From positions 416,001-480,000 of the forward strand of contig OZ241857.1 of the NCBI GenBank assembly GCA_965203315.1: a stretch of DNA of 64,000 bases, in the 5' to 3' direction. The notes beneath the pieces are model-generated. The model made no database searches, was not told the origin of the DNA, and worked only from the letters and a program-made list of their open reading frames with translations. The translations under genes were made by a program, and so were the position numbers. This DNA comes from Nitrosopumilus sp. Its GTDB lineage: Archaea; Thermoproteota; Nitrososphaeria; Nitrososphaerales; Nitrosopumilaceae. This document shows, one piece after another, positions 21,266-59,877 of the stretch (position 1 is the stretch's first letter; each line of letters starts with the position of its first letter).

Positions 21266-22215
21266 TGCCCACTCAAACCCAATCTGGAAAAGCGTTTGAA
21301 TATGCACTGGCCTCATCACTTTACAACAAGATCCGGAACTATCAAGATGTCGAGTTGGTTATGGATTCCTTGTATGAAAACGCTCAAAAGTGCTTCAAGA
21401 TATTTAGCAAACATGAAAAGCAACAATACAGTGTTGCATCAGATGTAGCAATCCGTCACATATGGGATCTTGAACCTAGATTGGCGAACCCATTGACAAA
21501 AAATTCACGTATTAAAATCTTGATCCAATCTGATCAAAAAGGCACGATGGGTGATGTACGGGATATTGTTACTGTAAACTCGGATGATGATTGGCAGATA
21601 GGATTTTCAGCAAAGAACAGGAATGACGTAGTAAAGAACTCGCGATTATCAGACAAGATTGACTTTGGTAAAGAGTGGTTGGGAATACCATGCTCTGACA
21701 TATACATGAACAAAGCTAGACATATCTTTGGAGAGTTGAGGGATATTATATAATCCACAAAATATTGGAATCAACTAGATAACAAAACAACTGAATATTA
21801 TGCTCCAGTTCTTTGTGCATTACAAGAAGAGTTGTCTAGGCTGGCAACAAGTAACAATAGTGTACCTGAACGTTTGATCTCATATATGATGGGCAAGAAA
21901 GACTATTACAAGATTATAAAGTATAACAAGTATACTGAGATTAAAGGGTACAACATGTATGGTACGTTAAATTGCTCATCTGGAAAGATTAAACCGAAAC
22001 ACAGAGTCAAACAAATCCAGTTTCCATCTAAAATATTAAAGATAGAGATGATTAGAGAGAATAGACTAGAGATCTTTTTTAATGGTGGGCGGACATTAGG
22101 ATTCAGAATTCATAACGCAACTTCAAAGATAGAGCCATCACTTAAACTTGATGTCAGAACTATTGGAATACCAAACAACATGTATGTTGATCGAGAGAGA
22201 TGGGATTCTGCATAA
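21262..22215 (+). pseudogene. HaeIII-family restriction endonuclease with in-frame TAA at 21751-21753
   Basis: GKAFEYA, GDVRDI, IGFSAK, SRLS and FRIHNATSKIEPSLKLDV motifs; both ORFs are in the same frame. Confidence 0.85.
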
Positions 22216-22332
22216 TTTAAACAAGTGACTGTATACGTACAGTCACATAACAAGCTAGTAATATTGCACATATTACATCTGGGACATTCTCTCATATTTC
22301 TCACTTTAATACAAAATTTCTCTTACGTACAC

Positions 22333-22935
22333 GTGAAAGTACTATCACTGCCTAGCAAATCGCTCCTCGATACCAGATGGATAAATCTCTCTATCCGAAA
22401 CTTTTCCCCTCGAGAGTTTCTGGGTTTGGTTGTAGGTTTACTGTGTATTGTGGGGACGATTGCAGGCAAAATCCATCCTGCTATGATACCACTTGGTATA
22501 CTGATCATGATCTTTGGATTTCTGCCGTTTGGGTTTCTACCTCCTGAGATACAGATACAGAGTTTTATACGATTTCATTTGGCAAGAAAGAGAGTCAGGA
22601 CAGCAGCAACGAAATCACACATGCTTGGATATGGCATGTACAGTACAGAAGATATTACAACCATAACAGAGGATACCGAAATAGTACGTGTACAAGACCT
22701 AGATACACCATATACTATACGATTAAAGACCGACACTAAAGGTCAGTTTATTCCAGTATCGATATATTTCACTAAAGATAACAACGAGATTCACATCGCA
22801 GACTCTACTACTGATATACGTGGTATGGTGTCATGTACAATACTCCTAGATGACTATGGAGAGAGACAGATCAGAATAGTAGATGCAAACCACACTGTAC
22901 TATACGACAAGACGGTGAGGTTTGAGCACAAATGA
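22333..22935 (+). CDS. Two-TM membrane protein with beta-rich C-terminal domain (PrgI/VirB3-like position)
   Basis: Hydrophobic hairpin; overlaps the VirB6-like gene; start supported by the ATG in the duplicate at 20048. Confidence 0.5.
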   Translation: MKVLSLPSKSLLDTRWINLSIRNFSPREFLGLVVGLLCIVGTIAGKIHPAMIPLGILIMIFGFLPFGFLPPEIQIQSFIRFHLARKRVRTAATKSHMLGYGMYSTEDITTITEDTEIVRVQDLDTPYTIRLKTDTKGQFIPVSIYFTKDNNEIHIADSTTDIRGMVSCTILLDDYGERQIRIVDANHTVLYDKTVRFEHK

Positions 22936-25226
22936 TCTGTATCACACTACCACCAAAGATACCAGATCCACCAAAACGATCTATGTCGTCTAGATTTACG
23001 AGTATAATACGTATAGTCAAAGAGACCAAATCGACACTAAACAGTCCATTATCTGCTGTGGTTCCAGGTGTTACACCTGCACTACAAGCACTGATCATCA
23101 TAGGTACAATAGTTGCATTCAATGGGGCAATGTTGGCTCTTGTAAATCAGATCAGACTAGAGTTCCTAGAGTTGATTACAACAATGCCCAATTTCGAGTT
23201 CTCTGTAAATGATGCAGGACAAGAGACAGGCAACTTTTCGTTTGTGTTGTATTCACTGTTACGAGATGCTGCGTTGTATTTCTTTATCTTTGTGTTTATG
23301 ATATTTGGCATATTATTGATGTTGAAACAGGCAGAACTAGTAACAACAGAGACACTAAAGAATATGGTCAAGACCTCATTAATAGGGATAATCATAATAA
23401 TGATCTTTCCATATATCTGGGATCCAATATCAGACATGTCAGAGGGTGCAGCTGTATGGATATTGAATCCGTTATACACAGGAGATCCAGACAATCCCTG
23501 TCTTACTGAGAGTGACAACTATCTAGTTGCTGAACTATATTCACACCAACGAAACATGTCCAAGTTTGCTTCAGTGGGTGGCATATACGCAGACAACGAA
23601 CCATGTAATCCAAATCTACGAATCAACTATCTGTTCGCAAAGGCAGTCTTTGGAGCATCCGAAGAGATCAAAGTCGAAGAAGGCTGGTGGAACTTTATAG
23701 ATACTATTAATGCATGGTTTCAGACAGGAACAGAGTCGGTATTTAGTGCCATATTTCTATCTGTAACAAAGGTTAGTATTCTATTCTTTTTAACTACATT
23801 TGCAGCTCTGTTGGGCTCTGTACGACAGTTACTGACAGATGTCGTTGCTATATCGTTACCATTACTATTGGTCTTTCGTTCATTGCCGTTCTGGGGTATC
23901 GACAAGATGGCAAATACTCTTCTTACAATATTTGTGCCACTGATATTTGTCCCATTCTTTACTGCATTGATTATAACTGCAGGTTCTACTAGTCTGATGA
24001 CCCAGGAGATTGATCTGACTACAATAACAGAAGAGGAGAGACAAGCAGGTGCAATAGATACTTTGGCACGTGACAGATACATGTTTTGGTTGTATGCCAT
24101 TGCAACACTGACTCTGGCTGTACTCACGCCTGTACTATTTGTACCCATGTTGAGTAGTGTTGCAGGTACTATCAGTACTATGGTACAGACAGGCATACAA
24201 TCTGGTGTGATGTCGATGGCTGGTGTAACAGCTGGAGCAGCTGCAGGCGCAACAGGTACAGTACAAGGCATGGCAGCTGGAGCTTCAGCCACAGGATCTG
24301 GACTGTTGTCGACTATGGCATCGCGTGGCGGTATGGGCTCCATGATCAAGGGCATGGCACAAGGGATGGTATCAGAGGGAACACACGGCAAGATAACTCC
24401 CGGTGGCGGACCAGCAGGATATGAAACAGGATATCACACTGCAGAGCAACGAGCACACAACATCGAAGCTGCACGTAGAGTATCGGCAAAGGGAATCTTT
24501 ACAGGTGCAGGTGGTGTTCCTGGCGATCCGGTTCCTGGCTCAGCACCATTTGGCGTAACACCAGGTACACAGGGACAGACTGGTACTAGTGGTACTGGCG
24601 GTACAAGTGGCACTCAAGTACCAGGCCAATCAAACCTACATGTGTTTGGAGTACCTGGTGGCATTCCTGTAGGAACCAGTATGCCGTCCAAGAGTCATGC
24701 ACCACTAGGTGATTATGGACAAGAACGCAAGTACATTACACAAAAAACTGGTATTCAAAGGATCAGAGATCTCGAACATGATGCTCAAATAGGTAATCTA
24801 CCTAGCACAAACACCCTTAGAGAGTGGAATAACGACATGTATCCACTACGAACAGCTGCACTAGAGGCACATAGAGAAAACTCAAAGCAGAGAGATCTCG
24901 AAAAGATACAGAGACAACACCAGAGAGAGTATGACACGTCTGAGGCTAGATACCAAAATGAATCATTTTTTAGAGATCGTAACGAACAGCAAACTCGTGG
25001 CAAGAGTACTGGTAAGAGTGGCAAGAAGGTGTTCCACCCACAACAAGAGAAACTATGGAAGAACCTCCCATCAAATGAGCAATATGTGACTTGGACTCCA
25101 AGCGATATCAAATCAGACGCAAATGGCACAGAAAGTGAGAAGCGAAGCCAAATCGGTGATACTAAAAGGAATGATTATGTAGAAAATAACACACACAGAA
25201 AGAATGAATTAAAAAAACAAATCTAG
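22932..25226 (+). CDS. VirB6/TrbL-like polytopic membrane protein
   Basis: Multiple TM helices, then a Gly/Ala/Thr-rich linker and charged tail; near VirB4/VirD4. Confidence 0.7.
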   Translation: MICITLPPKIPDPPKRSMSSRFTSIIRIVKETKSTLNSPLSAVVPGVTPALQALIIIGTIVAFNGAMLALVNQIRLEFLELITTMPNFEFSVNDAGQETGNFSFVLYSLLRDAALYFFIFVFMIFGILLMLKQAELVTTETLKNMVKTSLIGIIIIMIFPYIWDPISDMSEGAAVWILNPLYTGDPDNPCLTESDNYLVAELYSHQRNMSKFASVGGIYADNEPCNPNLRINYLFAKAVFGASEEIKVEEGWWNFIDTINAWFQTGTESVFSAIFLSVTKVSILFFLTTFAALLGSVRQLLTDVVAISLPLLLVFRSLPFWGIDKMANTLLTIFVPLIFVPFFTALIITAGSTSLMTQEIDLTTITEEERQAGAIDTLARDRYMFWLYAIATLTLAVLTPVLFVPMLSSVAGTISTMVQTGIQSGVMSMAGVTAGAAAGATGTVQGMAAGASATGSGLLSTMASRGGMGSMIKGMAQGMVSEGTHGKITPGGGPAGYETGYHTAEQRAHNIEAARRVSAKGIFTGAGGVPGDPVPGSAPFGVTPGTQGQTGTSGTGGTSGTQVPGQSNLHVFGVPGGIPVGTSMPSKSHAPLGDYGQERKYITQKTGIQRIRDLEHDAQIGNLPSTNTLREWNNDMYPLRTAALEAHRENSKQRDLEKIQRQHQREYDTSEARYQNESFFRDRNEQQTRGKSTGKSGKKVFHPQQEKLWKNLPSNEQYVTWTPSDIKSDANGTESEKRSQIGDTKRNDYVENNTHRKNELKKQI

Positions 25227-25377
25227 TAAACCAAATAAGCCACACTTGTAAGGAACAAAGAAAAAATGATCACACTTGTATTCGATTATACAGTATATTC
25301 TGCAATCTATTGATCTGTCTCGAATATTCGGTCTCATTAATTCATCAAACTGCACAAAATAGCCTCATGCTCCTTGC

Positions 25378-27474
25378 ATGCAACCTTTAAAAGCAACAAG
25401 TACCTTACAATACAGTATGATCGCTAAACAAGCAAACGAGTATACGATAATAGAGATTCCACTCAAGAAGGGAAAGACCCTAGAGATCACAAACCAATGT
25501 ATTGGAGTATACAGCTCCAAAGGAGTCCATCTACTGATTCCTGTACACAACATACGAATCATATCTCCTGTAAATAAGAATAAAATTCGCATTCAATACA
25601 TCGAAGTGGATCAACAGAACCCAAGCATCTATCAACGCAGGCAGATAATCTATGATCTCGATAAACCCAACCTCTCTCCTTTACAACTATGTCACAAGAT
25701 TCTAGAAGAGTATGAGAAACTAGGCATTGTCTCTAAAAATCCGGATGGCTTACTGTTTATGCCACCGGATGAGCATATTGTCGTAACATACCCAAACGTC
25801 CACACAAACGAAGGCAATGGTCTATTATACATCACAAATCTAGGTATTACACTTGAGACAAATGAGGGTATATCCTGTGACATATCCTATGCGCTAATGT
25901 CATTAATCACCGATCACAAGAAAGACATCATCAGAATAGTCTGGGAAGAGATATCACCTAAAGGCTCTACATCAAAGCATACATTCGACTTTACATTACC
26001 AAAAAAAGTAGACCGTGATCTAGCATCAAACTTGGCTAAAGAACAACTCTCTCGATTTAGAACAGAGAGCAGCTATGCATTTTTGCAGATGGACAAATAT
26101 TACAACAATCTCAATTATGATGCACTATATGATCTAGCAAGAAAAAGAGATGAACAGTTTGAGTCACATCTGATGCGTCACACAGAGTTTACTTTTGGTC
26201 ACATATCCCCCGAATTTACAGAATTTGAGAAGGATCTAATTCAATCATGCAAGCTACTCGGATATGATATAGGTTTAATCACAGAAAAAACAGACGAGGA
26301 AATAGAGCAACGTAAATCTGCAACACAATACATGCACTTTCACAACAGAGTCAAGAAAGAGATAAAATCACATAGTGAAGCAATGGATAGACTTTGGAAA
26401 GATCTTCCCAACGCACCTGAAAAATATGAAGACGCATTGAATATATTGTATGAAAATGAAGAGTGGCAAGATCACAATAGAGCAATCATAGAGATAGAGA
26501 ACAGAAATCCAGAGATTCTAAAGAGTCAGCAATACTTTAACAAAATATTGGCTGAGGGTTTGAGATACTATGATAAACGCGCAGTGATACTGTACAAAGA
26601 ATGGTGCAAGAATGTACCATTACAAGACTTTACAGACGAGTATGACGACGAATGGATCAACTATTTGCTAGAGAAACTAGATACGCCTCAAGGACATAAT
26701 CCTCTCTCTAGTTCATGTATATCTCGTGACAAATTAAAAGAACAATTAAACATGAGAAACAGAAACAGAACGACACTTGCAAACTTTTCAGCGCCAGACC
26801 ACATAGACAAGAGAGACATCTATAACAACTGTTGGTATGACAAACAGCATGACATGTGGTATGTCCAAGATGATAATTTAGATGAAATATTACAAGGACA
26901 TGCAGACTCTGATCTAGATGACTCACAGAGTACAATCGGCAGACGTGTGTGGGGATTCAAAGGCGATAATGTACAAATGTTTTGTGGCTGGCCGTCAATC
27001 ACATATGAGAGTGAAGATGGCAGATACGAAGATAGAGTTACATTTAGTCGAGTGACAGGTCAAGAGTTGCGTAGAACCGAATTTAAGTTCGTCTCTTTTA
27101 TCTTACCAATCTTGAGAGATGAGGATATCAATAAGCATATGGAGTGCATGTATGGGGGATTAGCATATTCGTCAACCGAAGTAGCGTGTTGTATTTTGCC
27201 TAGTGGCGGTTTTAAATGGATGACTCCAAAGATGTTAAAACTCGCTGGTGAGAATTATGGGTTTGGTGACATTCCATTAAATGAACGAGTCAGACGTGCA
27301 TTATTCAAGGTGGAATCAGGTGTCTGCTTTAATGTTCAAGCACCACTAGAACCTGTACCGATCAAGATTCCTGACGAGTATCCAGATCATCCGTACATGA
27401 ATAGATTTGCACGTACAGCTCCGTTTGTAGTCTGCTGGCCAAAGAAGAGAATGCCTGATAGGAGTCACGTCTAG
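25378..27474 (+). CDS. Large hypothetical protein, possible N-terminal PH/GRAM-like domains
   Basis: 698 aa ORF; 'GLLYITNLGITLE' segment. Confidence 0.6.
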   Translation: MQPLKATSTLQYSMIAKQANEYTIIEIPLKKGKTLEITNQCIGVYSSKGVHLLIPVHNIRIISPVNKNKIRIQYIEVDQQNPSIYQRRQIIYDLDKPNLSPLQLCHKILEEYEKLGIVSKNPDGLLFMPPDEHIVVTYPNVHTNEGNGLLYITNLGITLETNEGISCDISYALMSLITDHKKDIIRIVWEEISPKGSTSKHTFDFTLPKKVDRDLASNLAKEQLSRFRTESSYAFLQMDKYYNNLNYDALYDLARKRDEQFESHLMRHTEFTFGHISPEFTEFEKDLIQSCKLLGYDIGLITEKTDEEIEQRKSATQYMHFHNRVKKEIKSHSEAMDRLWKDLPNAPEKYEDALNILYENEEWQDHNRAIIEIENRNPEILKSQQYFNKILAEGLRYYDKRAVILYKEWCKNVPLQDFTDEYDDEWINYLLEKLDTPQGHNPLSSSCISRDKLKEQLNMRNRNRTTLANFSAPDHIDKRDIYNNCWYDKQHDMWYVQDDNLDEILQGHADSDLDDSQSTIGRRVWGFKGDNVQMFCGWPSITYESEDGRYEDRVTFSRVTGQELRRTEFKFVSFILPILRDEDINKHMECMYGGLAYSSTEVACCILPSGGFKWMTPKMLKLAGENYGFGDIPLNERVRRALFKVESGVCFNVQAPLEPVPIKIPDEYPDHPYMNRFARTAPFVVCWPKKRMPDRSHV

Positions 27475-33155: not shown

Positions 33156-34988
33156 GTGAAGACAGTACAGATCCACTCGTTCCAGCTGGTACCGCTAAAC
33201 CTAGAGTTTGCATCGAGTTCTACACAGGTGGCAGGAGTATCAGAACGAGACATCATAATATCGCAGTTTCTATCGTTATTTGACAAGCTAGAGAGTCCAT
33301 TCTGGCTAGATGTGATACGCGACTATGAAGAACTGTTATTCTACAAGACTCCTCGATACTGTGCCTTTGATAGTACAATACTAAACGTAACTGATGAAAA
33401 TCCAGAGAGCATTCTCAAAGGTGCAGGTGTAAAGTATACTACAGTATCATCACGCAAATGGAACATATCATACGAGTCACCAAACTATTGCAAGCTAGAA
33501 GATGATCTATACGCCAAAGCATACACATTATCAGTACTACATGACGATCTTGTACCTGGTTGGATATACGACATATATCGATATGCAGATGCATTGAGAA
33601 TATTTGTAGAACCGATACCTGTAGAAAAGTATCAGAGTATTATCGCAAATCACAAGACTGCAGCAATAACACTATCCTCTACATTAAAGATGGACTTGGC
33701 AGAGAACATTTCAATAATCAAAGAACTAGTACTGAACAAGAAACTAGAGAAATTATACTTTACCAAAGTCATACCTATCGTACTAGCCAAAGATCTAAAC
33801 ACATTAAATGAAAAACAAAAGTCCTTTGTACAAAACACAAAGAATGTTCCCGGTATCGATACTGCAAAGCATATACAATCACAGTTGATTCGCGGTAAAC
33901 TAGGACAGAACATCCTAATGTCAACATCTGCATTTCATGCATTACTGCCTTTTTGCACATCTGAACTATACGAAGATGGTGGCACACTACTCGGCGAGAA
34001 CATGCTTACCGGAAATCCTATACGATGGAACATCAACAACAGGTTAAACCGTAATACCGTACTTGCAGCTACATCGGGCTCTGGCAAGACTACACTTGCA
34101 ATGTTGATAATTCATGCATTTGAGAGAATGTATCCACAGAGTTTCATATTTGGTGTAGACCCAGAGAACGAGTATGCTGCACTAGGTCAAAACATGGGAT
34201 TCGAATACATTGATTACTCGTTTGGTCGCAAGATGGGTCTTGATCTATTCAAGATGGTACCAGACTCGTTCGCAGCTGCTGAAACTCTGTGTAATGCACT
34301 AGGAGTACCCGAGATAGACAGAATCCAACCAAACACAGCAGCTGCCAAACTAGCAGGTATGGATATCAAACAGCGTAGCTTTGCAGAGTTTTACAAGTAT
34401 CTACAAGAGTCTGATGACAAAGAGATCATTCGTTACTTTAAAGCACTAGCAAGTCCACCATACTCTGATTTCTTTGAAGGTAAGCCACCTGTATCCAACA
34501 AGATAATACTATCGCTCAAGAATATCGGCTCTGCAGGTGGAACAGTCCATCGGCTCATTACACAGATATCGTTATCATACGCGATGGGCAGAGCACTACT
34601 CATGCCAAAGATAATCCCCAAATTGTTCATGCTAGATGAGGTCTGGATGTTACTCCAACATGATACACTGGGAAATTACATACAAAATCTATCTCGGCGT
34701 GGAAGAAAGTACAACATCAATCTAATGATGGCTACACAGAATATAGAAGATATGACAGACAACATATCGGCAAGAAACGTTCTTGTAAACAGCGATACTG
34801 TCATGTTTCTACGACAGTCCGAAGCTACGATATCATCACTAAAAGAACACTTTGTGTTATCTGATAGGGCAGTATCATTTTTGTTGCAACTAGAACGTGG
34901 TCAAGCGTTGATCAAATATGGCAACAACATGGTACCTGCAAGGATTCTACCCGACAAGGCACAGTTGGAGCTATTTAGACCGAGATAA
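33156..34988 (+). CDS. virB4: VirB4-like conjugation ATPase
   Basis: ATSGSGKT Walker A, VDPENEY, MLDEVW Walker B, RRGRKYN...ATQ. Confidence 0.85.
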   Translation: MKTVQIHSFQLVPLNLEFASSSTQVAGVSERDIIISQFLSLFDKLESPFWLDVIRDYEELLFYKTPRYCAFDSTILNVTDENPESILKGAGVKYTTVSSRKWNISYESPNYCKLEDDLYAKAYTLSVLHDDLVPGWIYDIYRYADALRIFVEPIPVEKYQSIIANHKTAAITLSSTLKMDLAENISIIKELVLNKKLEKLYFTKVIPIVLAKDLNTLNEKQKSFVQNTKNVPGIDTAKHIQSQLIRGKLGQNILMSTSAFHALLPFCTSELYEDGGTLLGENMLTGNPIRWNINNRLNRNTVLAATSGSGKTTLAMLIIHAFERMYPQSFIFGVDPENEYAALGQNMGFEYIDYSFGRKMGLDLFKMVPDSFAAAETLCNALGVPEIDRIQPNTAAAKLAGMDIKQRSFAEFYKYLQESDDKEIIRYFKALASPPYSDFFEGKPPVSNKIILSLKNIGSAGGTVHRLITQISLSYAMGRALLMPKIIPKLFMLDEVWMLLQHDTLGNYIQNLSRRGRKYNINLMMATQNIEDMTDNISARNVLVNSDTVMFLRQSEATISSLKEHFVLSDRAVSFLLQLERGQALIKYGNNMVPARILPDKAQLELFRPR

Positions 34989-34989
34989 G

Positions 34990-37623
34990 ATGCCACAGAC
35001 CATTACAAATCCCAATGACTATTCCGTAATAGGATATCTAGACAAGAGAAAGGTACTGGCTATTCCAAATATATCTAGACAGAATCTACTAATTCTAGGA
35101 GAGATAGGCTCTGGCAAATCTAGTATACTACGACTGTTGATATATCAAGATATTGTAGCAGGTAGAGGATTCCTACTAGCAGAGAATCACTCTGAACTAT
35201 CCAGAGAGATACTGTCGATGATTCCGCCAGAGCAATACCACAAGCTAGTGTACATTAGTCTGTCATCTATAAAAAAATACGACAAGACACTACGATTCAA
35301 TCCACTAGAGATGGATGATCCTCAAGATGCAGGAATGATTGCGTTAAACTTTACCGAGTGTTTAGCAAAAGCATTTGCTGACTCGTGGGGTGCACGAGTA
35401 GAGACATGTGCTAGAAACGGAGCACTATCGGTAATAGGCACACAGAGTAATACCATAGGTGCAATGTTAAAACTACTCACAGACAAGGACTTTCGTCAGA
35501 CGTTCATACCTGAAATAGCCAACAAACAGGCAAGAGATTTCTTTTCACACGTATATGACGAACAGTATCCAAAAGAGGCAGGAGGCGTAATATTCAACAA
35601 ACTCAACAAGATGCTGACTATACCAGAAATGGATGCAATGTTTAATACGAAAAAGTCATCGATATCATTTTTGGATATCATAAACAACGGTATGTATGTT
35701 GTACTAGATTTTGGCGGACTACCAAACGATATGGTGATGTTTCTAGGCAATGTCTTTCTGCATCTATTTTATACACAGTACAAGAAACGAGCCAAGAATA
35801 GATCTGGCATATACGATACATTCAATCTGTATCTAGACGAGGTACAAATGTTCTCACCACCGATGATTCGAGAGTTACTGAATACAGTTCGTAAATACGG
35901 TATAAAGGCCACAATAGCAACACAGTCGATAACTGCAGTAGGCAAAGAACTATCAGACGAGATAACAACGCTGTGTAGAGCAGTGGCATGTTTCAGGTGT
36001 GACAATACAACAGCATATCATCTAAAGTCTATCTTGCCTATCAAACCCGAAGCTCAACAACAGCTGTCGTTTCACTATTTTTCATACTATGGAGCAGGAG
36101 ATAAACCCATACGAGCGGTAGCCAAAACTAAACACATGAACATTCCAGACACATCAGAACAAGCAAGTAAAGCAAGCGTAATGAATCTAGGTTCGTTTAT
36201 ATCTCTAGACAAGTACTATACATCACAAGGTGGAAATGCAGATGTCGTACTATCACCACTAGAGTTTGGCATACTGAATCTATTACGAATGGAGAATAGA
36301 GACATGACCAAAAACGAGATAACAGAAAAGATAACTCGTATATTTGTAACCAATCCACGCGCAATAACAAACGCACTAAACGATACATTGGTCGCTACCA
36401 ATAGATTCGTTGCAATAAAAGACGTCATGTCAGACGATGGTGATGATAAACTAGAGACTAGATACGTGATCACCAAGACAGCACATTCTAAAATATTTAG
36501 TCATGCAGCAGCAGGTAGACGCGCAGGAAGTGATCTACATCTACGTACTATATTTACCATAATGGATCTACAAACAAATCTGTACTGTTACTGTATTCCC
36601 GATCTTGGTAAAAACACATCACAGAAGGCAGACCTTGTTATATTTTCACCAAAAAAGATCAAACCCAAAGATCCAAAACAAGAGACGTTATACGGAACAA
36701 AATTCCATCCAACCGAATGGTCAGATAAAATAGTTGCGGTGGAGGTAGAGACTGCACCTAACAAACACTGGGATCAGATACACATCAACTATATAAAAAA
36801 TGAAAAGATGGGATACTTTACATGGTTTGTTGTATACGATGAGAATGCAAAACGAGGCATATATCACACACTGCAAGAACACGGTATATCTTCTCAAGAC
36901 TATTCGATACTAGTATATGACAAAAAGTCACTACTTGGCGCCGATATCTCTCTAGTTCGTTCAGATATTGAGTCGTGTATATGGAAAGTAATATTTGACA
37001 ACAGAGGTGCAACCGTACAGAATATCTGCGATTCACTAGTAGATTATGATAAATCGGATATCAAGAGAGCGATACAACACATGAGTGAAACGGGAGCATT
37101 AGAATCTAGACGGAATAAGAGTGACACAGCTGATATCTGGTGTATATCTGCAATACGTAACGCCAGTAATGATTCACTGGGTGTAGAGGCCATACCTGGA
37201 ACAACACCACAAGACAAGGAGCGATATGCAGCAACACGAGAGATATCTGACGTATCTGTCGATGTCAATCCAAATACAGTACAAGATACATCTTTGAATA
37301 TCGAAAAAATACTAGATCATCCGGTGGTTCGAACTAGACCGACTCTAGACGATCATATCTTTACAGATACACCGATATCTGATGTGCAGGACTCGCAAAC
37401 ATCTAGTTCTATCCCGGATAAAGAGTGTACAGATGCCAAACCAGACATGACAAACGTGCAGTTGCTAGAGTACTGGATCAACATACATGATCTGACTGAT
37501 CCAGAATCTCAATCAGTACTAAAGGATATTGAAGCAAAGTTGATGAACCGAGGATTAATGGTAAAATCTAGAAGAGGCAAGTTCTTTCTATCAAAGATTC
37601 CCAAAAATCAAAAGTCCAAGTAG
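34990..37623 (+). CDS. VirD4/TraG-like coupling ATPase with C-terminal wHTH and nuclease-like extension
   Basis: GEIGSGKS, FNPL, LYLDEVQ, RKYG..ATQ; C-terminal ADLV...AVEVET. Confidence 0.8.
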   Translation: MPQTITNPNDYSVIGYLDKRKVLAIPNISRQNLLILGEIGSGKSSILRLLIYQDIVAGRGFLLAENHSELSREILSMIPPEQYHKLVYISLSSIKKYDKTLRFNPLEMDDPQDAGMIALNFTECLAKAFADSWGARVETCARNGALSVIGTQSNTIGAMLKLLTDKDFRQTFIPEIANKQARDFFSHVYDEQYPKEAGGVIFNKLNKMLTIPEMDAMFNTKKSSISFLDIINNGMYVVLDFGGLPNDMVMFLGNVFLHLFYTQYKKRAKNRSGIYDTFNLYLDEVQMFSPPMIRELLNTVRKYGIKATIATQSITAVGKELSDEITTLCRAVACFRCDNTTAYHLKSILPIKPEAQQQLSFHYFSYYGAGDKPIRAVAKTKHMNIPDTSEQASKASVMNLGSFISLDKYYTSQGGNADVVLSPLEFGILNLLRMENRDMTKNEITEKITRIFVTNPRAITNALNDTLVATNRFVAIKDVMSDDGDDKLETRYVITKTAHSKIFSHAAAGRRAGSDLHLRTIFTIMDLQTNLYCYCIPDLGKNTSQKADLVIFSPKKIKPKDPKQETLYGTKFHPTEWSDKIVAVEVETAPNKHWDQIHINYIKNEKMGYFTWFVVYDENAKRGIYHTLQEHGISSQDYSILVYDKKSLLGADISLVRSDIESCIWKVIFDNRGATVQNICDSLVDYDKSDIKRAIQHMSETGALESRRNKSDTADIWCISAIRNASNDSLGVEAIPGTTPQDKERYAATREISDVSVDVNPNTVQDTSLNIEKILDHPVVRTRPTLDDHIFTDTPISDVQDSQTSSSIPDKECTDAKPDMTNVQLLEYWINIHDLTDPESQSVLKDIEAKLMNRGLMVKSRRGKFFLSKIPKNQKSK

Positions 37624-48639: not shown

Positions 48640-49815
48640 ATGACAAACAAGACAAACACTCTCAAAATACTGTCAATGATAGTAGCAGTTACGCTAGTAG
48701 CAACTACGCCTGTGATGACAAATGCTCAGATTACACCTGGTGAAGATGGTCCGATAACCACGCCAGCCAGAACAGGCAGTACCACGTTATCGGATGATGA
48801 GATCTCTAAAAAAGTTGACGAGATTGGATTTGCCATGTTGCAACTGAAAATTCAAAATCAACATCTAGCCCAATTTTCCACCAACGAACTCATACAAGAT
48901 ATGATCAACGATAACGAGGAAGAGATAGAAAAGTTATTTGCACAGATGATGGAGATATGGCCACCATTAGTTGTTGTTGAGATTCCCGCAGATGTCGAGG
49001 CTAGAATGAACACAGTCTTGCCAAAACTAGCAGAAAGTGGTTTGCCGGTGTTAGGAATGGGAATTGATCATCTTACAGGAACGTTGAGTGTAAAGGTCGA
49101 CGTAGAAAGAACGACACCAGACACTGAACAGAAAATAAGAGAGATTGCAGGAGATGTTCCGTTGAGCATTACTTTTGTCGCAGACGATGCAGTATTTCAG
49201 AGCGCATCATGTGATCGAACCACCGGGTACTGTGATCCTCTAGTGGGTGGCTCATTAGGGGAAGACAGGCATTGGGGTCTAGAGTGTACTATATCTATTG
49301 CAGCAGTTAGAAATACAGGTAATGGAACAGAAAATGGAATAGTAATCCCAGATCATTGTAACAAAGAAACAACACAGTATTATCAACCTGATAACGCTAG
49401 ATCATCATATCTAGTGGGTAGTGAAACTAAAGATGGGGGTTGGTTCTGTGACTGTGATTTTGTGAAATCAAATTCACGTGCAATTGATGCGACTAAACTG
49501 ATTGTCAACGGATCAGATTTTACCTTGTCCGGCAAGTCTGATCTTAGAGTAGGCGATTATGTATTCATGTATGGCGCAAAATCAGGCTACGATGTGGGAC
49601 GAATAGTATCCATAAATCAATGGCAGACTTTTGATAACAGATGGTTCTGGGATCTGTACGCAATAGAAGACATAAACTTTACAGATGGTGACAGCGGTGC
49701 TCCAATCGTAGGTACCTCAAACGATCACTATGCTGGAATGAATATTGGTACATTCGATGGACATAATTATGGTCATGATTGGTCTATTCTAAAGTCTAGA
49801 CTAGGTTTACAATAA
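48640..49815 (+). CDS. Secreted chymotrypsin-like (S1) serine protease with pro-region
   Basis: Signal peptide; PDHC, CD and GDSGAP catalytic-triad motifs. Confidence 0.8.
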   Translation: MTNKTNTLKILSMIVAVTLVATTPVMTNAQITPGEDGPITTPARTGSTTLSDDEISKKVDEIGFAMLQLKIQNQHLAQFSTNELIQDMINDNEEEIEKLFAQMMEIWPPLVVVEIPADVEARMNTVLPKLAESGLPVLGMGIDHLTGTLSVKVDVERTTPDTEQKIREIAGDVPLSITFVADDAVFQSASCDRTTGYCDPLVGGSLGEDRHWGLECTISIAAVRNTGNGTENGIVIPDHCNKETTQYYQPDNARSSYLVGSETKDGGWFCDCDFVKSNSRAIDATKLIVNGSDFTLSGKSDLRVGDYVFMYGAKSGYDVGRIVSINQWQTFDNRWFWDLYAIEDINFTDGDSGAPIVGTSNDHYAGMNIGTFDGHNYGHDWSILKSRLGLQ

Positions 49816-49841: not shown

Positions 49842-50138
49842 AACAAATTCCTCAAACATATCATATAGTCTTACATACAGTCAAAAATTAAGTATTTAGA
49901 TGCAATGTCCAGGCATGATAAACTCAATATCTAGATGTTCTGAAACTATATTGTCTATCCTTTGCACAAATACAAGTTCGGCTTTTGTCTCTAGAAACCT
50001 TGTCTCTAATTGTATTTATGGTGGTCACACACTTGATGTAGAACACTTTTGAACCTTGTAAGCCACAGTCTGAGCAGTGTGTTAAGGGAATCAATTTATT
50101 ATTTTCTCCTTTAAATGTAAAATTATCTGTATTAAGCA

Positions 50139-50441
50139 ATGTTAGGCAAAAGCAAAGAAGCAGACATCAATGAGATACTTCGTGGACCTGTAATGGTAGC
50201 CGCAATGGCCATCCTCGTAATCGGGGCAACGTTTGCACTAGCCGAGAACTATATCCCTAAAGAGAGTGACAAACCCGACAAGACTGCCATCTTTGGCACA
50301 TTTATGATCGATGCGATAGATGAAGTTGTATTCTATATCAAGTGGGGCGGATATCTAGCTATAATTGCAGGAGGTATCATGGTAGGAGTTCAGCTACGCA
50401 TACATCCCAGCTTCAAAGATACACATGGTTCTGGTGAATAG
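50139..50441 (+). CDS. Small two-TM protein (VirB2/pilin-like candidate)
   Basis: 100 aa with two hydrophobic helices; first gene of an overlapping operon. Confidence 0.45.
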   Translation: MLGKSKEADINEILRGPVMVAAMAILVIGATFALAENYIPKESDKPDKTAIFGTFMIDAIDEVVFYIKWGGYLAIIAGGIMVGVQLRIHPSFKDTHGSGE

Positions 50442-50838
50442 TACCATGTTGTATCATTTTTTACTAATCACGTCTTATACGATATATGCTATATTCTCTG
50501 TACTGATAGGTATAATCGCAAATGTATTTTTGAACGACTATGGCATATGGATTGCAATATTTGTGTACATTGGATGTTTCTTTGTAGATTATATCACGAC
50601 CATTAGAGTGAAAAATTATACCAAACATGAGATAAATCCATTATTTCAGGTACTGAATCACAAACTTGATTCCACTACATCGTTTATGGTGATACTAGGA
50701 ATTGGTGTAACTGTCAATCTAGTTGCATTCTATACCATACAAGATACTGTTCTATCGTATATCTTGAGCATTGGACACTTGTGTATGGCTGCCAATAATC
50801 ACCACTACTCTAAAAAGATAAACATGGAGGTAATCTAG
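50425..50838 (+). CDS. Integral membrane protein (DUF5658-like)
   Basis: D..TT...EINPL motif between TM helices. Confidence 0.5.
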   Translation: MVLVNSTMLYHFLLITSYTIYAIFSVLIGIIANVFLNDYGIWIAIFVYIGCFFVDYITTIRVKNYTKHEINPLFQVLNHKLDSTTSFMVILGIGVTVNLVAFYTIQDTVLSYILSIGHLCMAANNHHYSKKINMEVI

Positions 50839-51338
50839 TGATTACTGTACAGATAGACAATGTCGTTACAACTGCTCAAGTTACTAGATTCAACACAAAT
50901 AGTATCGTATATTGGCCAAAAGTAGAGTTTCGACCAAATGGTTATCCTGGAATCTGTATACATGAAAGACATGTAACTCTATCAGTATTTGACTCTGGCA
51001 AGATCGTATCCAAAGGTAGCAAAGGCACGAAAGATGCTATTCAATCTATACTAGACTTTATTCAAAGACTAAAAAAGTCTGGAATCAAGGTCTCTCTAAA
51101 GTCAAAACCTACCATCAGTATGATCGTAGCACATGTTAGATTTGAGCCAAAGAGACTAGACATTCAAAGACTCAAAGAGTTGCCAGAGTTTCATAAAGAG
51201 ATCAAGAGATTTGCCAGCATACAACTAAAGTTCAAAGAGGGTAATGTTCAGGCATACGAGTCCAAGATTGTAATAAGCAGTACAAGCATTGATGATATCA
51301 CTCGCATAGCAAAAAAGATGAGGCGATACACATGCTAA
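50838..51338 (+). CDS. Divergent TATA-binding protein (TBP) paralogue
   Basis: IDNVV...EFRPNGYPG...VFDSGKIVSKGSK equals TBP repeat 1; degenerate repeat 2 ISMIVAH...LDI...RFASI. Confidence 0.8.
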   Translation: MITVQIDNVVTTAQVTRFNTNSIVYWPKVEFRPNGYPGICIHERHVTLSVFDSGKIVSKGSKGTKDAIQSILDFIQRLKKSGIKVSLKSKPTISMIVAHVRFEPKRLDIQRLKELPEFHKEIKRFASIQLKFKEGNVQAYESKIVISSTSIDDITRIAKKMRRYTC

Positions 51339-51796
51339 CCACAGAGTATCTAAAGATCTTTTTACTGACAGGCGTAATAACAGCTAGTGCCATTGGTATC
51401 GCATTCTCGTCTGGACAGTTTGATACCATGGTACTAGATTATCGTGTACAAGTACATACAGAGTATCTACTAAACAACAATACCGACAATATCGGGCATA
51501 TCTGGTACGAGATATACAATACTGGAACTAGCGATATTGATATCATACGTACAAGCTGTGAAATTACATGTAACATAAATGATCCTGCACTGGTACATCC
51601 ACTCGGAGTACCATGTGATAACTGTACGCCACCACGATCTGGAGGGGAATCATTACTTTCAGGTCAATCGATCAAGATTAACGGCAGAATCGTTCTTGGT
51701 AGTCTAGAAAGAGGAGATCATATAACATTACAATTTGATGCAATAGATGCACTTGGTTCTAACAAACTAGTAATCAAACAGGTGCTAGTACGATGA
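51332..51796 (+). CDS. Archaeal pilin/archaellin-like membrane-anchored Ig-fold protein
   Basis: N-terminal hydrophobic helix; 'IYNTGTSDIDI' and 'LSGQSI' motifs. Confidence 0.5.
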   Translation: MLTTEYLKIFLLTGVITASAIGIAFSSGQFDTMVLDYRVQVHTEYLLNNNTDNIGHIWYEIYNTGTSDIDIIRTSCEITCNINDPALVHPLGVPCDNCTPPRSGGESLLSGQSIKINGRIVLGSLERGDHITLQFDAIDALGSNKLVIKQVLVR

Positions 51797-52619: not shown

Positions 52620-53875
52620 CAGTACTTCCAACTGTCTGCTTATTAACAAGCTGCAGCGGCAATCTTTGGTGGAGGCCATTTTTCTCGATAGAGTTCAATG
52701 TAATCTAGCACAAGATCTCTGAACGTAAGTTGAGGAATGTGCCACCAACCAACATTCAATGGATCATTTTCATCATCTATGTTACGTGCTATGATCCAAG
52801 CATTATAAAACAAAAGAGAAAAAGAAAACAACAAATCTCTTACTGATTCATTTTTAGTTGTAGTTGGTAATCTCATCTTATCGACTACCCTATATCCAGT
52901 TTCAATAACCCATCGCTTTGCGTATTTTTTTGTATCAATTCTTGGATTGTTTGTTGCGAATGGAATGTAGTCTATTTTACCATCCTTTTCAATTTCTTCT
53001 ATGATCATGTAATAGTCCATTGACAAGCCTTTGCCATTAGAGATCGTACGTTTTGATACTCGTTTACGTTTTCCTTGTTTGTACTCTTCTAGATATCGCC
53101 TTGTCTTGGCGTTATTTTGACAGATGGTGAGAAATGTGTAACCTCGACCTTGCAGCAGCTGCAAGATCTGTGTAGTAAGAAACTCACGATCCATCAACCA
53201 GTTACCAATGTCCAGACGCAGATCTTCACAATCTTTGATGATTTTACGCACAAAATTGGGGTTTTGGTCTCCTTTGTACATGGCATGTTTTGACACAACT
53301 AGTGTTTCGCCTTCGTTTATGACTTGTGCTGTCATGTACTTTTCATGTAATGCATATCTGTCGTCAACCGGACCATAGCATAGTTTAGTATCTGTTTTGT
53401 CATCATATCGTGCATATTTGTGCAGATCAATTGCTATATCTTTTGGCTCTTTAGACCAACGACCCATATCTTGTAATGCTGCGATGTTGCTTTTTACTGA
53501 CCTTTTAAATTTAAAGTTGTCAAAATCAGCTGCTGCCTTTTTGAATAATAGTCTAAAATATTCTGGAGATGGAGCACGCTTTTTCCTCATTTTCATTGAA
53601 GTTGAATGTCCAGTTATTGAACTTTTAGACATGGCTGTTTTAAACATAATGGATAAAACATCTTCTTTACCAAACTTTGCATTATTTTTTTTTAGACACA
53701 GGAATATCTAAATCATTTAAAAATGCAGTATATCGAGAATATTCTAAATGTCTTCTAAATCGCTGTCCATTTAATTCATTTTTGTTTTTCAACAAAAGTT
53801 ATTTTTAGAAACCCTTTATAGATCTTTCTATTTCTATATAATTTTCGTTATTTAAAGAGACATTTGGAAGTACTG
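52620..53875 (-). mobile_element. ISH3-family element; transposase 53792-52643 with a frameshift in an A-run near 53690
   Basis: TIR CAGTACTTCCAA; 5-bp TSD AGACT; MDREF and YAKRWVIETGY motifs. Confidence 0.92.
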
Positions 53876-57567: not shown

Positions 57568-59877
57568 ATGAAGAAGAATACTGACCCACTAGAATCTGCA
57601 ACTAGAAAAAAGATAGACCAAATCCTAATCAATCTAGAATGGAATACTGACGAATTTTCTAACAAGTGTAACGTGTTTACAGAAAGAGTAAAGACCAAAG
57701 AACAAACAAAACTGCTTAAAAAGATTAGTGGTTACAAAAAACCGCCAGACTATGTTTTGTATGAATCCAATACGGACAAACCTATAGCAATTATTGAAGC
57801 TAAGAGAATTGGACAATCCATGGAAGGTGCACTAAACCAAGCAATTACAAATTATGCAGAACCTCTCAATGTAGATTTAATCTTCACTACAGACGGAACA
57901 ATCGTTCAAGCATTTGATAACCGTAGTAAAAATAATCTCCTTATGGATGATCAAATAGTTACTGATTTTCTTGATGAGCAAACAGTTTTGAAATTTATTG
58001 AGGATGGTTACAAACTATACACTTCTGAAAAATTCTCCCACACAAAACGTGAACTAATTGAAATTTTTTCAAACGCAAATGATATTTTGAGAGAAGAGGG
58101 AATAAGGCAAGGAATTGAGAGATTTACCGAATTTTCTAATTTATTGTTCCTGAAATTAATCAGTGAAAAAGAAAAAGCACGAGAAGCTAAAGGTGAGAAA
58201 AGAATATTAGAAAAAAAATACTGTTGGGAATCATTCTGTGACAAAGAGCCAGAACTTGTACTGGATTACATTAACAAAATCATTCTTCCAAGATTAGTTG
58301 ACAGATACAATGGCAGTGGAGAGGTTTTTCAGAAGGAATTGAAGATAAAAACACCTGAAATTCTTAAAGAAATTGTAGATCAACTATCTACTCTTAAACT
58401 ATATGATACTGATTCTGATGTAAAAGGTGATGCATTTGAGTACTTTTTAAAAAATGCCCTAATCGTAGGCAAGGATTTGGGAGAACATTTCACACCTAGA
58501 AACATAGTCAAACTAATGGTAGATTTGATTAGTCCTAGTTTTGGTGAAAAAGTTTATGATCCTGCATGTGGTACAGGCGGATTTTTGATAGAAGCATTCA
58601 GACACATCAAAGCTAAAATTAAACATACTAGAGATAACATAAAAGTTTTAGAACAAGACACAATCTATGGACGAGAGTTAACTGCAACTGCAAAGATAGC
58701 CAAAATGAACATGATTGTGAGCGGAGATGGACACACAAACATTCAACAGATGGATAGCCTAAAAAATCCACTTAAAAACGAGTATGAGACAATTCTTACA
58801 AACATACCCTTTTCACAAAAAACCAAACATTCAAGTCTTCATGGGTTTACTACCACCGATGCAAACCCTGTATTTTTGAAACATGTTATAGATGCCTTAA
58901 GCGATGGTGGAAGATCTGCTGTCATTGTTCCTGATGGATTATTATTTGACAAAGGCTCGGAATACCAAAAAATCCGAAAGATACTGCTTACAACTTGTAA
59001 TGTAATAGCTATAATCCAATTACATCCTTATGTTTTCTCACCATACACCAAACAGCCCACATGTATAGTTGTTTTCCAGAAAGGACAATCGACTAAAGAT
59101 GTATGGTTCTTTGAGGTGGATAATGATGGGTTCAAGAAGACAGACAGTAAGAAAGGAAGGCCACCCATTGAGAAAGATGATTTGAAATTGTTAAGAGAGA
59201 TTTGGAATGACAAATCTGATTCATCCCATTCTTTCTCGATAAATTATAAAACAATCGAAAAAAACTATTACAAGTTGAACATGAATGCATACAAGCAAAG
59301 AAAAACACGTAAAGTTCCCACTATGCCTCTAAGCGAACTATGTACTATAGATATTGGTGGAACCCCTCCAAGAGGAAATCGAGAGTATTGGACAGGAGAC
59401 CATGTTTGGGTAAAAATTGCCGATATGTTAGGTAAAAAAACAATTACTGAATCTGGAGAAACCATCACTGACAAAGGCATTGAAAAATCCAACGTAAAAG
59501 AACTCAAAGAGGGAACTTTGTTGTTTAGTTTTAAACTCACGCTGGGTAGAGTGGCATTTGCGGGAAAGGCTCTATACACAAATGAAGCAATAGCAGGATT
59601 AAACCCAATAGATAAGGATGATAAATATTTGATGAGATATTTGTACTATATACTACCTACTCTTGATTTTGCACCGTGGTCCCAAAGAGCTACCAAAGGA
59701 TTCACAATGAACAAGGATTCGATAGGAGATATTGAGATTCCAATGCCCTCGCCCTATATGCGACAAAAAATTGTCGAGACGGGAGAGAATAATGAAGAGA
59801 GAAAACAAGATCTTTTTGACCAAATTGACAAAATCGATGATTCGCAGATCGATTTTATTAAAAAATCAACTTGTTGA
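57568..59877 (+). CDS. Fused restriction-modification protein (HsdR_N-like nuclease, N6-MTase, one TRD; type IIG-like)
   Basis: PDYVL...IIEAK, GEHFTPR, DPACGTGGF, TNIPF and GGTPPRG..TNEAI motifs. Confidence 0.88.
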   Translation: MKKNTDPLESATRKKIDQILINLEWNTDEFSNKCNVFTERVKTKEQTKLLKKISGYKKPPDYVLYESNTDKPIAIIEAKRIGQSMEGALNQAITNYAEPLNVDLIFTTDGTIVQAFDNRSKNNLLMDDQIVTDFLDEQTVLKFIEDGYKLYTSEKFSHTKRELIEIFSNANDILREEGIRQGIERFTEFSNLLFLKLISEKEKAREAKGEKRILEKKYCWESFCDKEPELVLDYINKIILPRLVDRYNGSGEVFQKELKIKTPEILKEIVDQLSTLKLYDTDSDVKGDAFEYFLKNALIVGKDLGEHFTPRNIVKLMVDLISPSFGEKVYDPACGTGGFLIEAFRHIKAKIKHTRDNIKVLEQDTIYGRELTATAKIAKMNMIVSGDGHTNIQQMDSLKNPLKNEYETILTNIPFSQKTKHSSLHGFTTTDANPVFLKHVIDALSDGGRSAVIVPDGLLFDKGSEYQKIRKILLTTCNVIAIIQLHPYVFSPYTKQPTCIVVFQKGQSTKDVWFFEVDNDGFKKTDSKKGRPPIEKDDLKLLREIWNDKSDSSHSFSINYKTIEKNYYKLNMNAYKQRKTRKVPTMPLSELCTIDIGGTPPRGNREYWTGDHVWVKIADMLGKKTITESGETITDKGIEKSNVKELKEGTLLFSFKLTLGRVAFAGKALYTNEAIAGLNPIDKDDKYLMRYLYYILPTLDFAPWSQRATKGFTMNKDSIGDIEIPMPSPYMRQKIVETGENNEERKQDLFDQIDKIDDSQIDFIKKSTC

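Follow-up and report, generated by a model that had tools for sequence, protein, structure and literature searches.

A TBP-like gene within a block of overlapping genes

The DNA analysed here is a 64-kb stretch of a Nitrosopumilus genome, called the window below. All coordinates are numbered within it unless a locus label is given, and literature is cited from full texts without their supplements. At 50139-51796 lie four plus-strand open reading frames (ORFs) with overlapping ends, TM100, TM137, TBPL and P154. The third of these encodes a divergent relative of the TATA-binding protein (TBP). We are highly confident of both the identity of this TBP-like protein and its genomic context. The block contains the following features.

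50838..51338, plus strand: TBP-like protein (TBPL), 166 aa, GTG start, pI 10.0; recognised by Pfam TBP, PDB entry 1pcz and full-length homologues
50847..51077, plus strand: TBPL repeat 1 (residues 4-80), with N8, Y36-P37-G38, F51-D-S-G-K55 and the family-specific stirrup E-F/Y-R-P-N-G
51108..51326, plus strand: predicted degenerate repeat 2 of TBPL (about residues 91-163), with M95 in place of Asn, stirrup H119-K-E-I-K-R124, F125 and Y140
50425..50838, plus strand: TM137, a membrane protein of 137 aa with four transmembrane (TM) segments, from hydropathy and an alignment of homologues
50139..50441, plus strand: TM100, a small membrane protein of 100 aa, from hydropathy and an alignment of homologues
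51332..51796, plus strand: P154, 154 aa, with one N-terminal hydrophobic helix by hydropathy and a weak match to the UpsA pilin

The GTG start of TBPL and the TAG stop of TM137 have one nucleotide in common, the G, and TBPL and P154 overlap by 7 nt. In Kyte-Doolittle scans, hydrophobic segments were found in TM100 and TM137 and a single N-terminal one in P154, and none was found in TBPL. The original prediction was of a TBP-fold ORF that overlaps membrane and pilin-like genes. Hydropathy bears out the membrane genes. The pilin-like gene holds only weakly: P154 matched the UpsA pilin model at E 0.0044 with 17 bits, against a cut-off of 130.

TBPL is a TBP homologue with a degenerate second repeat

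Pfam TBP (PF00352) matched TBPL in one stretch, residues 4-80 only (E 7.9e-11, 42.1 bits, cut-off 22.9), and repeat 2 was not detected by Pfam. All ten archaeal TBP models of NCBIfam matched TBPL at 23-46 bits, with cut-offs of 181-347. The best score was 46.5 bits against a cut-off of 278, so the curated threshold was not reached. The NCBIfam model NF001594 aligned residues 3-161 collinearly with the whole of TBP. The closest solved relatives of TBPL are archaeal TBPs, the best being 1pcz (E 3.3e-15), and in these PDB alignments repeat 1 of TBPL matched both repeats of the target.

The two halves were also compared separately by hhalign with an alignment of 89 canonical TBPs. The N-half matched it with a probability of 99.7% (E 9e-26). 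The C-half (residues 88-166, 23 family rows) matched TBP repeat 2 with a probability of 96.2% (E 2.1e-9) and repeat 1 with 96.1%. When a profile of 13 C-halves was searched against all PDB sequences, the top four were archaeal TBPs, namely 1mp9 (E 1.6e-6) and 1ais, 1d3u and 1pcz (about 4e-4). The register given by hhalign and the PDB profile places K-E-I-K-R-F on Y-E-P-E-Q-F and A-Y-E-S-K on I-F-S-S-G-K. By these remote-homology comparisons, the second half of TBPL is a degenerate TBP repeat, visible to profile methods only. The predicted descent of the 166-aa ORF from TBP is upheld, by Pfam at 42.1 bits and, for repeat 2, by hhalign and the PDB profile, and the protein would have the saddle fold of TBP. 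The motifs noted earlier are also present. Repeat 1 has YPG and VFDSGK, and repeat 2 has M95 for Asn, AYESK for IFxSGK and HKEIKR for the EYEPEQ stirrup.

The host genome carries two canonical two-repeat TBP genes elsewhere, whose products are 27% and 25% identical to TBPL. Like canonical archaeal TBPs (PF00352; 1pcz, 1ais, 1mp9, 2z8u), TBPL has two tandem repeats of normal length. It retains the N-lobe Asn, the S-G-K motif and both aromatic pairs, and canonical archaeal TBP is the best PDB match for the whole protein and for each half. Unlike in the canonical proteins, repeat 2 is invisible to Pfam and the NCBIfam scores fall far under their cut-offs. The TBPL family is also uniformly basic, has lost the C-lobe Asn and the acidic pair that contacts transcription factor B (TFB), and occurs only in a conjugation module.

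Residues kept and lost

Residues were counted over 23 family rows, with the register of the aromatic positions taken from hhalign and the PDB profile search. Position 36 is aromatic in 22 of the 23 rows (Y36 in TBPL), position 51 in all 23 (F51), position 125 in all 23, always as Phe (F125), and position 140 in 22 (Y140). We take these four positions to align with the DNA-kinking phenylalanines of TBP. The N-lobe Asn, N8, is found in 23/23 rows, S53 and G54 are invariant, and K55 is kept in 21/23. At the C-lobe Asn position, which is M95 in TBPL, the rows have Met (9), Leu (8), Val (3), Gln (1), Tyr (1) and Asn (1). In TBP both lobes have a minor-groove Asn at the start of strand S1; TBPL has N8 and lacks the C-lobe one. 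All 23 rows have a pI of 8.3-10.4, compared with a median of 7.8 and a range of 4.1-10.8 in the canonical set. The hallmark of the family is its N-lobe stirrup, E-Y/F-R-P-N-G-F-P, in which P33 is invariant and N34 nearly so. The TBP ancestry, together with the basic charge and the retention of the kink residues, speaks for a saddle that binds DNA, and TBPL would by these residues still sit on the minor groove and bend DNA.

The surface that meets TFB is different. As described in the full text of Ravarani et al. (2020; PMC7221094), the glutamates at C.L3.2 and C.L3.4 (human E284 and E286) contact an Arg and a Thr of TFIIB/TFB, and the human substitutions E284R and E286R lower transcription, E286R in vitro. 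At these positions TBPL has E121, still acidic, and K123, where the charge is reversed. Both positions are acidic in 2/23 family rows versus 58/77 canonical TBPs; 89 canonical TBPs were examined for this pair, and the regular expression located the motif in 77 and missed 12. The altered stirrup that had been pointed out in repeat 2 therefore does touch TFB-contact residues. The loss of this signature argues against ordinary TBP function.

These counts bear on the explanation that TBPL is an ordinary alternative TBP, which pairs with one of the seven host TFBs and widens the promoter repertoire of the host, in the manner of archaea that have numerous TBP and TFB genes. A host with two canonical TBPs and seven TFB loci would suit such a role, and so would the acidic E121 at C.L3.2 and the kept kink residues. 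However, K123 reverses the charge at C.L3.4, where human E286R cut in vitro transcription (PMC7221094), and the acidic pair survives in only 2 of the 23 rows. The scores of about 46 bits against NCBIfam cut-offs of 181-347 also speak against it, as does a distribution of 11 in 401 genomes (among the matches listed), always inside the conjugation module. We consider an ordinary alternative TBP quite improbable.

The family is old and under purifying selection

A search of 5.8 billion proteins returned four full-length homologues, with 74, 69, 49 and 42% identity to TBPL. In an exhaustive search of 1.84 billion representatives with a threshold of E 1e-3, 196 proteins matched, and twelve (P0003, P0006-P0016) aligned with TBPL in a single stretch over the full length; the rest resemble canonical TBPs and were mostly matched twice by repeat 1. 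Identity among the full-length homologues ranges from 74 to 27%. Compared with P0002, TBPL has an identity of 0.74 over the N-half and 0.75 over the C-half; the mean identity of all 253 pairs is 0.42 for the N-half and 0.32 for the C-half.

Among the ten closest DNA pairs, dS could be computed for seven, with dN of 0.28-0.48, dS of 1.1-3.4 and dN/dS of 0.09-0.30; these ratios are rough, as dS was saturated in the remaining three (including L006/L063, dN 0.24) and in most pairs overall. A quick maximum-likelihood tree was built from 86 rows, in which 60 of the 89 canonical TBPs and the two host TBPs made up 62 canonical rows. In this quick tree the 24 family rows lie on one side of one branch. 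The 23 core rows group with an SH-aLRT support of 95 on a long stem, and the two host TBPs stand together among the canonical TBPs, apart from the family. Judged from these sequences, TBPL is a member of a small, old TBP paralogue family under purifying selection.

A decaying, functionless duplicate of a host TBP gene would also be missed by Pfam in repeat 2 and would be at home in an island full of insertion sequence (IS) elements. In contrast, the reading frame of TBPL is intact, its homologues reach down to 27% identity with both halves conserved alike, and its clade is separate from the host TBPs. Decay had been linked in advance to a dN/dS near 1 and a lack of homologues; what we found was 0.09-0.30 and 12 representative clusters. 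Together with the synteny conserved at 14/14 loci described below, the selection, the full-length homologues and the separate clade refute the pseudogene reading, to which we give almost no credence.

Viral contigs of IMG/VR contained no relative of TBPL and PLSDB plasmids gave no match to it, and PHROGs has no family for TBPL or its three neighbours. No fused or longer form of TBPL was found in our searches, which is weak evidence.

A distant member of the family was found in genome G169 (L072:15827-16330, plus strand). It is 167 aa long and matches the family model at E 1.5e-17, and the VirB4 of this genome is 30% identical to that of the window. The gene heads an operon with two other module genes, and the repeat 2 of its product keeps a more canonical S-G-R-x-x-x-T-G-A motif. 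On the opposite strand it adjoins the gene of a 221-aa protein (L072:15112-15777, minus strand), apparently TM100 fused to TM137.

TBPL belongs to one type of conjugation module

The other genes of the module in the window are as follows.

33156..34988, plus strand: VirB4-like conjugation ATPase, 610 aa; Pfam TraG P-loop and AAA_10, and NCBIfam VirB4-like models
34918..37623, plus strand: VirD4/TraG-like coupling ATPase, 901 aa; Pfam TraG-D_C and T4SS-DNA_transf
48640..49815, plus strand: S391, 391 aa, with an N-terminal hydrophobic segment by hydropathy, just upstream of the block
22225..27474, plus strand: three module genes of 236, 764 and 698 aa, with homologues in L007, L008, L061 and L072
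53890..54690, plus strand: ParB-like gene; Pfam HTH_ParB at 22.8 bits, and tblastn with the ParB-like proteins of L068 and L069

The conserved order of the block is VirB4, VirD4, TM100 (a 2-TM protein), TM137 (a 4-TM protein), TBPL and the pilin-like P154. We compared it with 14 other loci. Species genomes supplied three of them, carrier genomes seven and metagenome contigs four, and three of the metagenome loci are near-copies of carrier locus L056. TM137 lies directly upstream of TBPL in all 14, so the predicted synteny in other elements is confirmed. Both VirB4 and VirD4 precede this pair, in the same orientation, in 11/14; two contigs are too short, and in L007 VirB4 is downstream. TM100 was found in 13/14 loci, and P154 directly follows TBPL in 9/14. 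The VirB4 homologues near TBPL in the relatives have 49-74% identity to that of the window, and VirD4 homologues (50-68% identity) stand between VirB4 and TM100 in 11/14 loci. In the window the block is split from VirD4 by about 12.5 kb, which hold IS, methylase, restriction and S391 genes.

Full-length matches to the TBPL model (positions 1-168) were found in 11 of 401 Nitrososphaeria genomes at E 9e-42 or better, among the matches listed; the other matches listed cover model positions 3-111 only, like canonical TBPs. The distant L072 member implies that further diverged members may hide beyond the matches listed. Homologues of VirB4 are present in 100 of the 401 genomes. Their identity is at least 49% in 11, the same 11 that carry TBPL, and the next best is 32%. 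Genomes G283, G231, G132, G326 and G364 enter the 401 as denominator only. None of the five has a TBPL family match, and G283, G231 and G326 have distant VirB4 matches. As judged from this gene content, the TBPL family is a constant component of a single kind of conjugative module, which is type-IV-secretion-like and is carried by integrated elements of Nitrosopumilaceae.

The neighbours of TBPL are conserved without being recognised by family models. TM100 and TM137 have no match in Pfam, NCBIfam or PHROG, and the TM137 homologues carry no Pfam domain and no name. In the alignments, D55, T59, E69, N71 and N125 of TM137 are invariant, and TM100 has a conserved N-terminal K-x-K-G-x-D..R-G-P motif. 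That TM100 could be a VirB2/CedA1-like pilin is only a guess. The P154 proteins begin with a conserved M-x-L-T-x-E-x-L-x-I-F followed by a hydrophobic helix, without a leader peptide. The 236-, 764- and 698-aa module proteins have no Pfam or NCBIfam match; the 764-aa one is a large membrane protein, which would be VirB6-like. S391 has no family match in Pfam, NCBIfam or PHROG, and homologues of it lie between VirD4 and TM100 at two metagenome loci (L064:4797-5996 and L065:5586-6785). It carries a GDSGAP motif, which we assume to be that of a serine protease. The listed start of the ParB-like ORF is 54094, and similarity to the relatives begins at about 53890.

Two side observations concern the ATPases. 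The VirD4-like protein is long (901 aa), and its residues at about 639-736 faintly match helix-turn-helix regulators (Sta1 and sigma-70 models, E 0.05-0.09). A fragment of VirB4 (G000:C1:527931-528185), located some 48 kb past the window, has 60% identity over residues 2-90 with two TAG stops, and looks like a remnant of a second element.

Promoter sites of the conjugation operons

50098..50121, plus strand: promoter-like site ATTATTTTCTCCTTTAAATGTAAA, whose TTTAAAT box starts 29 nt before the TM100 ATG

From its box and spacing, ATTATTTTCTCCTTTAAATGTAAA would work as a promoter. In the window as in the relatives, TM100 and VirB4 have a TATA-like box 26-29 nt ahead of their starts, and the boxes of the conjugation operons in this type of element are of the ordinary TTTAAAT/TTTATAT kind. 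In the relatives, the boxes before TM100 and VirB4 have ATTTT..C.C upstream and a (T/G)CAA flank downstream. An extended motif, roughly ATTTT..C.CTTTAAAT(T/G)CAA, can be written for the sites before conjugation operons (window 50098-50121; L008, L056-L062).

A weight matrix was made from nine relatives' sites and used to scan the whole genome. Two outliers were found, G000:C1:482471 (L077) and G000:C5:248045 (L078), and the window's own site came 11th. The L077 outlier lies 2.5 kb right of the window, before an actin/ParM-like gene. The comparison set of host TATA contexts consisted of 41 sites only. Since the window site ranks only 11th, we do not claim an element-specific promoter class.

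The original prediction had also offered the GATCTATA promoters as targets of TBPL. This sequence occurs at 11 sites in the window, against 3.4 expected, and 0/100 shuffles reached 11. The positions include 13334, 29971(-), 31696(-), 37861 and 45309, with six others. For five of the 11 sites an ORF starts 24-25 nt downstream, and since DDE transposases account for four of these five ORFs, the excess looks like repeated IS promoters. Because the sites are IS-associated and none stands before the TBPL block, while the conjugation operons carry TTTAAAT/TTTATAT boxes, we rejected GATCTATA as a target of TBPL. Of the predicted element-encoded alternative TBP, the part that stands is an element-borne, conserved and selected paralogue with a remodelled repeat 2; the link to GATCTATA promoters does not.

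TFB genes near TBPL

According to the main text of Krupovic et al. (2019; PMC6563490), all reported thaumarchaeal integrative and conjugative elements (ICEs) encode TFIIB homologues, mostly beside ParB. The full text on large double-stranded DNA viruses (PMC7221094) describes viral TBPs with diverged C.L3.2/C.L3.4 that pair with their own TFIIB. TBPL resembles these orthogonal viral pairs in that it keeps the nucleic-acid-binding signature and has diverged at C.L3.2/C.L3.4. It differs in that its host is archaeal and its carrier a conjugative element, not a virus (PMC7221094), and in its surroundings: there is no TFB in the window, and two of five related carriers have none less than about 250 kb away.

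Short divergent TFBs adjoin ParB-like genes in two carriers (L068 and L069), 61 and 80 kb from TBPL, similar to the TFIIB-ParB pair of the ICEs (main text of PMC6563490). Unlike in that pair, the factor discussed here is a TBP homologue in a transfer operon, not beside ParB. A third carrier has a divergent TFB 16 kb from TBPL. The genome of the window has seven TFB loci; the distance from TBPL to the nearest TFB is about 186, 269 and 490 kb in this genome and two more carriers. The ParB-like gene of the window has a DDE transposase (52643-53647, minus strand) as its immediate upstream neighbour, at the place where related elements often carry TFB.

Possible functions of TBPL

Redirection or blocking of transcription, as in the original prediction, is possible, and the place of TBPL in the operon of the transfer machine suits a part in DNA transfer about equally. 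Two models remain in play once three features are taken together: the site of TBPL among VirD4, the membrane genes and the pilin-like gene is fixed, its translation is coupled to that of TM137, and it is strictly tied to a single VirB4 subclade. The one we favour, though tentatively, is that TBPL may be an element-specific DNA-binding TBP derivative that controls transfer genes. It would presumably work on the element's own DNA. Its saddle would bind the minor groove and bend the element DNA, and it would control the transfer operons through the TTTAAAT-type boxes with their unusual flanks. In one variant, TBPL would seed initiation through a non-canonical contact, either with an element TFB or by another surface, for which the highly conserved N-lobe stirrup E-Y/F-R-P-N-G is a candidate. 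In a second variant, TBPL would sit on the boxes, fail to bring in host TFB and thereby silence the transfer genes.

Several observations count against control of transcription. A six-frame search with Pfam TFIIB found no TFB in the 64-kb window, and tblastn with four element-type TFBs found no remnant of one there. The distances of 16-490 kb in the six carriers mean that a resident TBP-TFB pair is not the rule. The C-lobe stirrup is highly variable within the family, which is odd for a surface that meets a conserved partner. TBPL also lies in the middle of a machine operon, translationally coupled to a membrane protein, and transfer regulators are usually not sited there. Finally, the adjacency to TM137-type genes survives the rearrangement in L072, which may reflect physical association with the membrane component.

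The same position leads to the second live model, in which a TBP saddle would have been recruited into the conjugation machine as a DNA-handling accessory. The co-translated TM137/TM100 pair would anchor TBPL at the membrane, where TBPL would bind and bend the element's double-stranded DNA at a transfer origin and pass this DNA on to the VirD4-like translocase. TBPL would possibly dock on the TM100/TM137 pair and be an archaeal counterpart of the bacterial relaxosome DNA benders. TraM, TraY and IHF, the accessory benders of bacterial relaxosomes, are small basic DNA-binding proteins encoded beside the coupling ATPase; their likeness to TBPL is in gene position only, and the fold is unrelated. 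This model accommodates the fixed place of TBPL two genes downstream of VirD4, the stop/start overlap with TM137 and the strict co-occurrence with one VirB4 subclade (11/11). It also fits the adjacency to the fused TM100-TM137 in the rearranged L072, the basic pI with kept kink residues, and the loss of the canonical TFB-contact signature. In addition, the main text on thaumarchaeal ICEs (PMC6563490) reports no detected relaxase and suggests transfer of double-stranded DNA. On the other side, a transfer origin was not found: scans of four intergenic regions between VirD4 and TM100 for origin-like repeats gave no shared element. To our knowledge, moreover, every TBP studied so far acts in transcription. 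We regard recruitment into the machine as a lesser possibility than control of transfer genes. It has a variant closer to regulation, in which the membrane pair might hold TBPL inactive, in the manner of an anti-sigma factor, until mating contact releases it for activation of transfer genes.

TBPL could also be a protein-protein adaptor, a TBP fold that does not bind DNA and docks on other parts of the machine, such as the ATPases or the cytoplasmic loop of TM137. The operon position and the coupling to membrane proteins would be explained in this way. The most conserved family-specific feature, R-P-N-G of the N-lobe stirrup, is a surface loop and not part of the DNA face, and the C-lobe Asn is lost in 22/23 rows. 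Against this, four solvent-exposed aromatics at kink positions, N8 and the basic pI are hard to explain without DNA, and we hold an adaptor to be unlikely.

Among eukaryotic TBP-related factors, TRF2 (TBPL1) is comparable, as a paralogue of TBP whose surfaces have changed and whose task is specialised. TRF2 has lost the TATA-contacting phenylalanines and still binds TFIIA and TFIIB. The pattern in the TBPL family is the opposite, as its members keep the aromatics and lose the TFB contact.

TBP is regarded as the one basal factor that all transcription events in archaea and eukaryotes require, and both of its lobes are normally very tightly constrained. Here a mobile element keeps an asymmetric TBP, in which the kink residues of both lobes survive and the TFB-contact signature is gone. 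This suggests that a mobile element carries its own DNA-bending or transcription factor. If TBPL is transcriptional, the orthogonal TBP/TFIIB systems of viruses would have a parallel in archaea, and the protein could be used to ask how much of TBP initiation needs. If it acts in DNA transfer, it would have a non-transcriptional job for a TBP and would give a first handle on substrate recognition in relaxase-less archaeal conjugation. TBPL can also serve in practice to recognise one type of conjugative element among marine ammonia oxidisers.

Full-text literature searches and the papers cited here yielded no account of a TBP homologue that belongs to an archaeal conjugation module. The main text of PMC6563490 contains none of the terms 'TBP', 'TATA', 'TFIID' and 'arCOG01764'; its supplements hold the element annotations and may bear on novelty. 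The full text of PMC6697440 mentions, without further analysis, an extra TBP orthologous group unique to a sponge-associated Nitrosopumilus, which may or may not be the TBPL family.

The mobile island

The original prediction placed the gene in a mobile region, and the surroundings agree: an island makes up the central part of the window. The window contains the VirB4- and VirD4-like ATPases, the ParB-like gene, several restriction-modification pairs and at least 11 DDE transposase ORFs, including those at 14218, 28866(-), 30574(-), 37894, 45341, 52643(-), 55510(-), 3767(-), 5019(-) and 62480(-). The sporadic distribution of the TBPL family points the same way. With its VirB4/VirD4 pair, its ParB-like gene and no relaxase found, the island appears to be the same kind of element as the thaumarchaeal ICEs in the main text of Krupovic et al. 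(PMC6563490). No tRNA was found in the window, and no tyrosine recombinase among the ORFs scanned there. The island extends beyond the right end of the window.

Between 12000 and 62000 there is an unusual concentration of restriction-modification genes. The endonucleases include the XcyI, MvaI/BcnI, HaeIII and HinP1I types, the methylases include several N4/N6 enzymes and D12, and a fused type I/IIG-like enzyme lies at 57568-59877. The HaeIII-type endonuclease is split into 21262-21753 and 21832-22215, which match Pfam positions 1-150 and 183-298, and this gene is probably broken.

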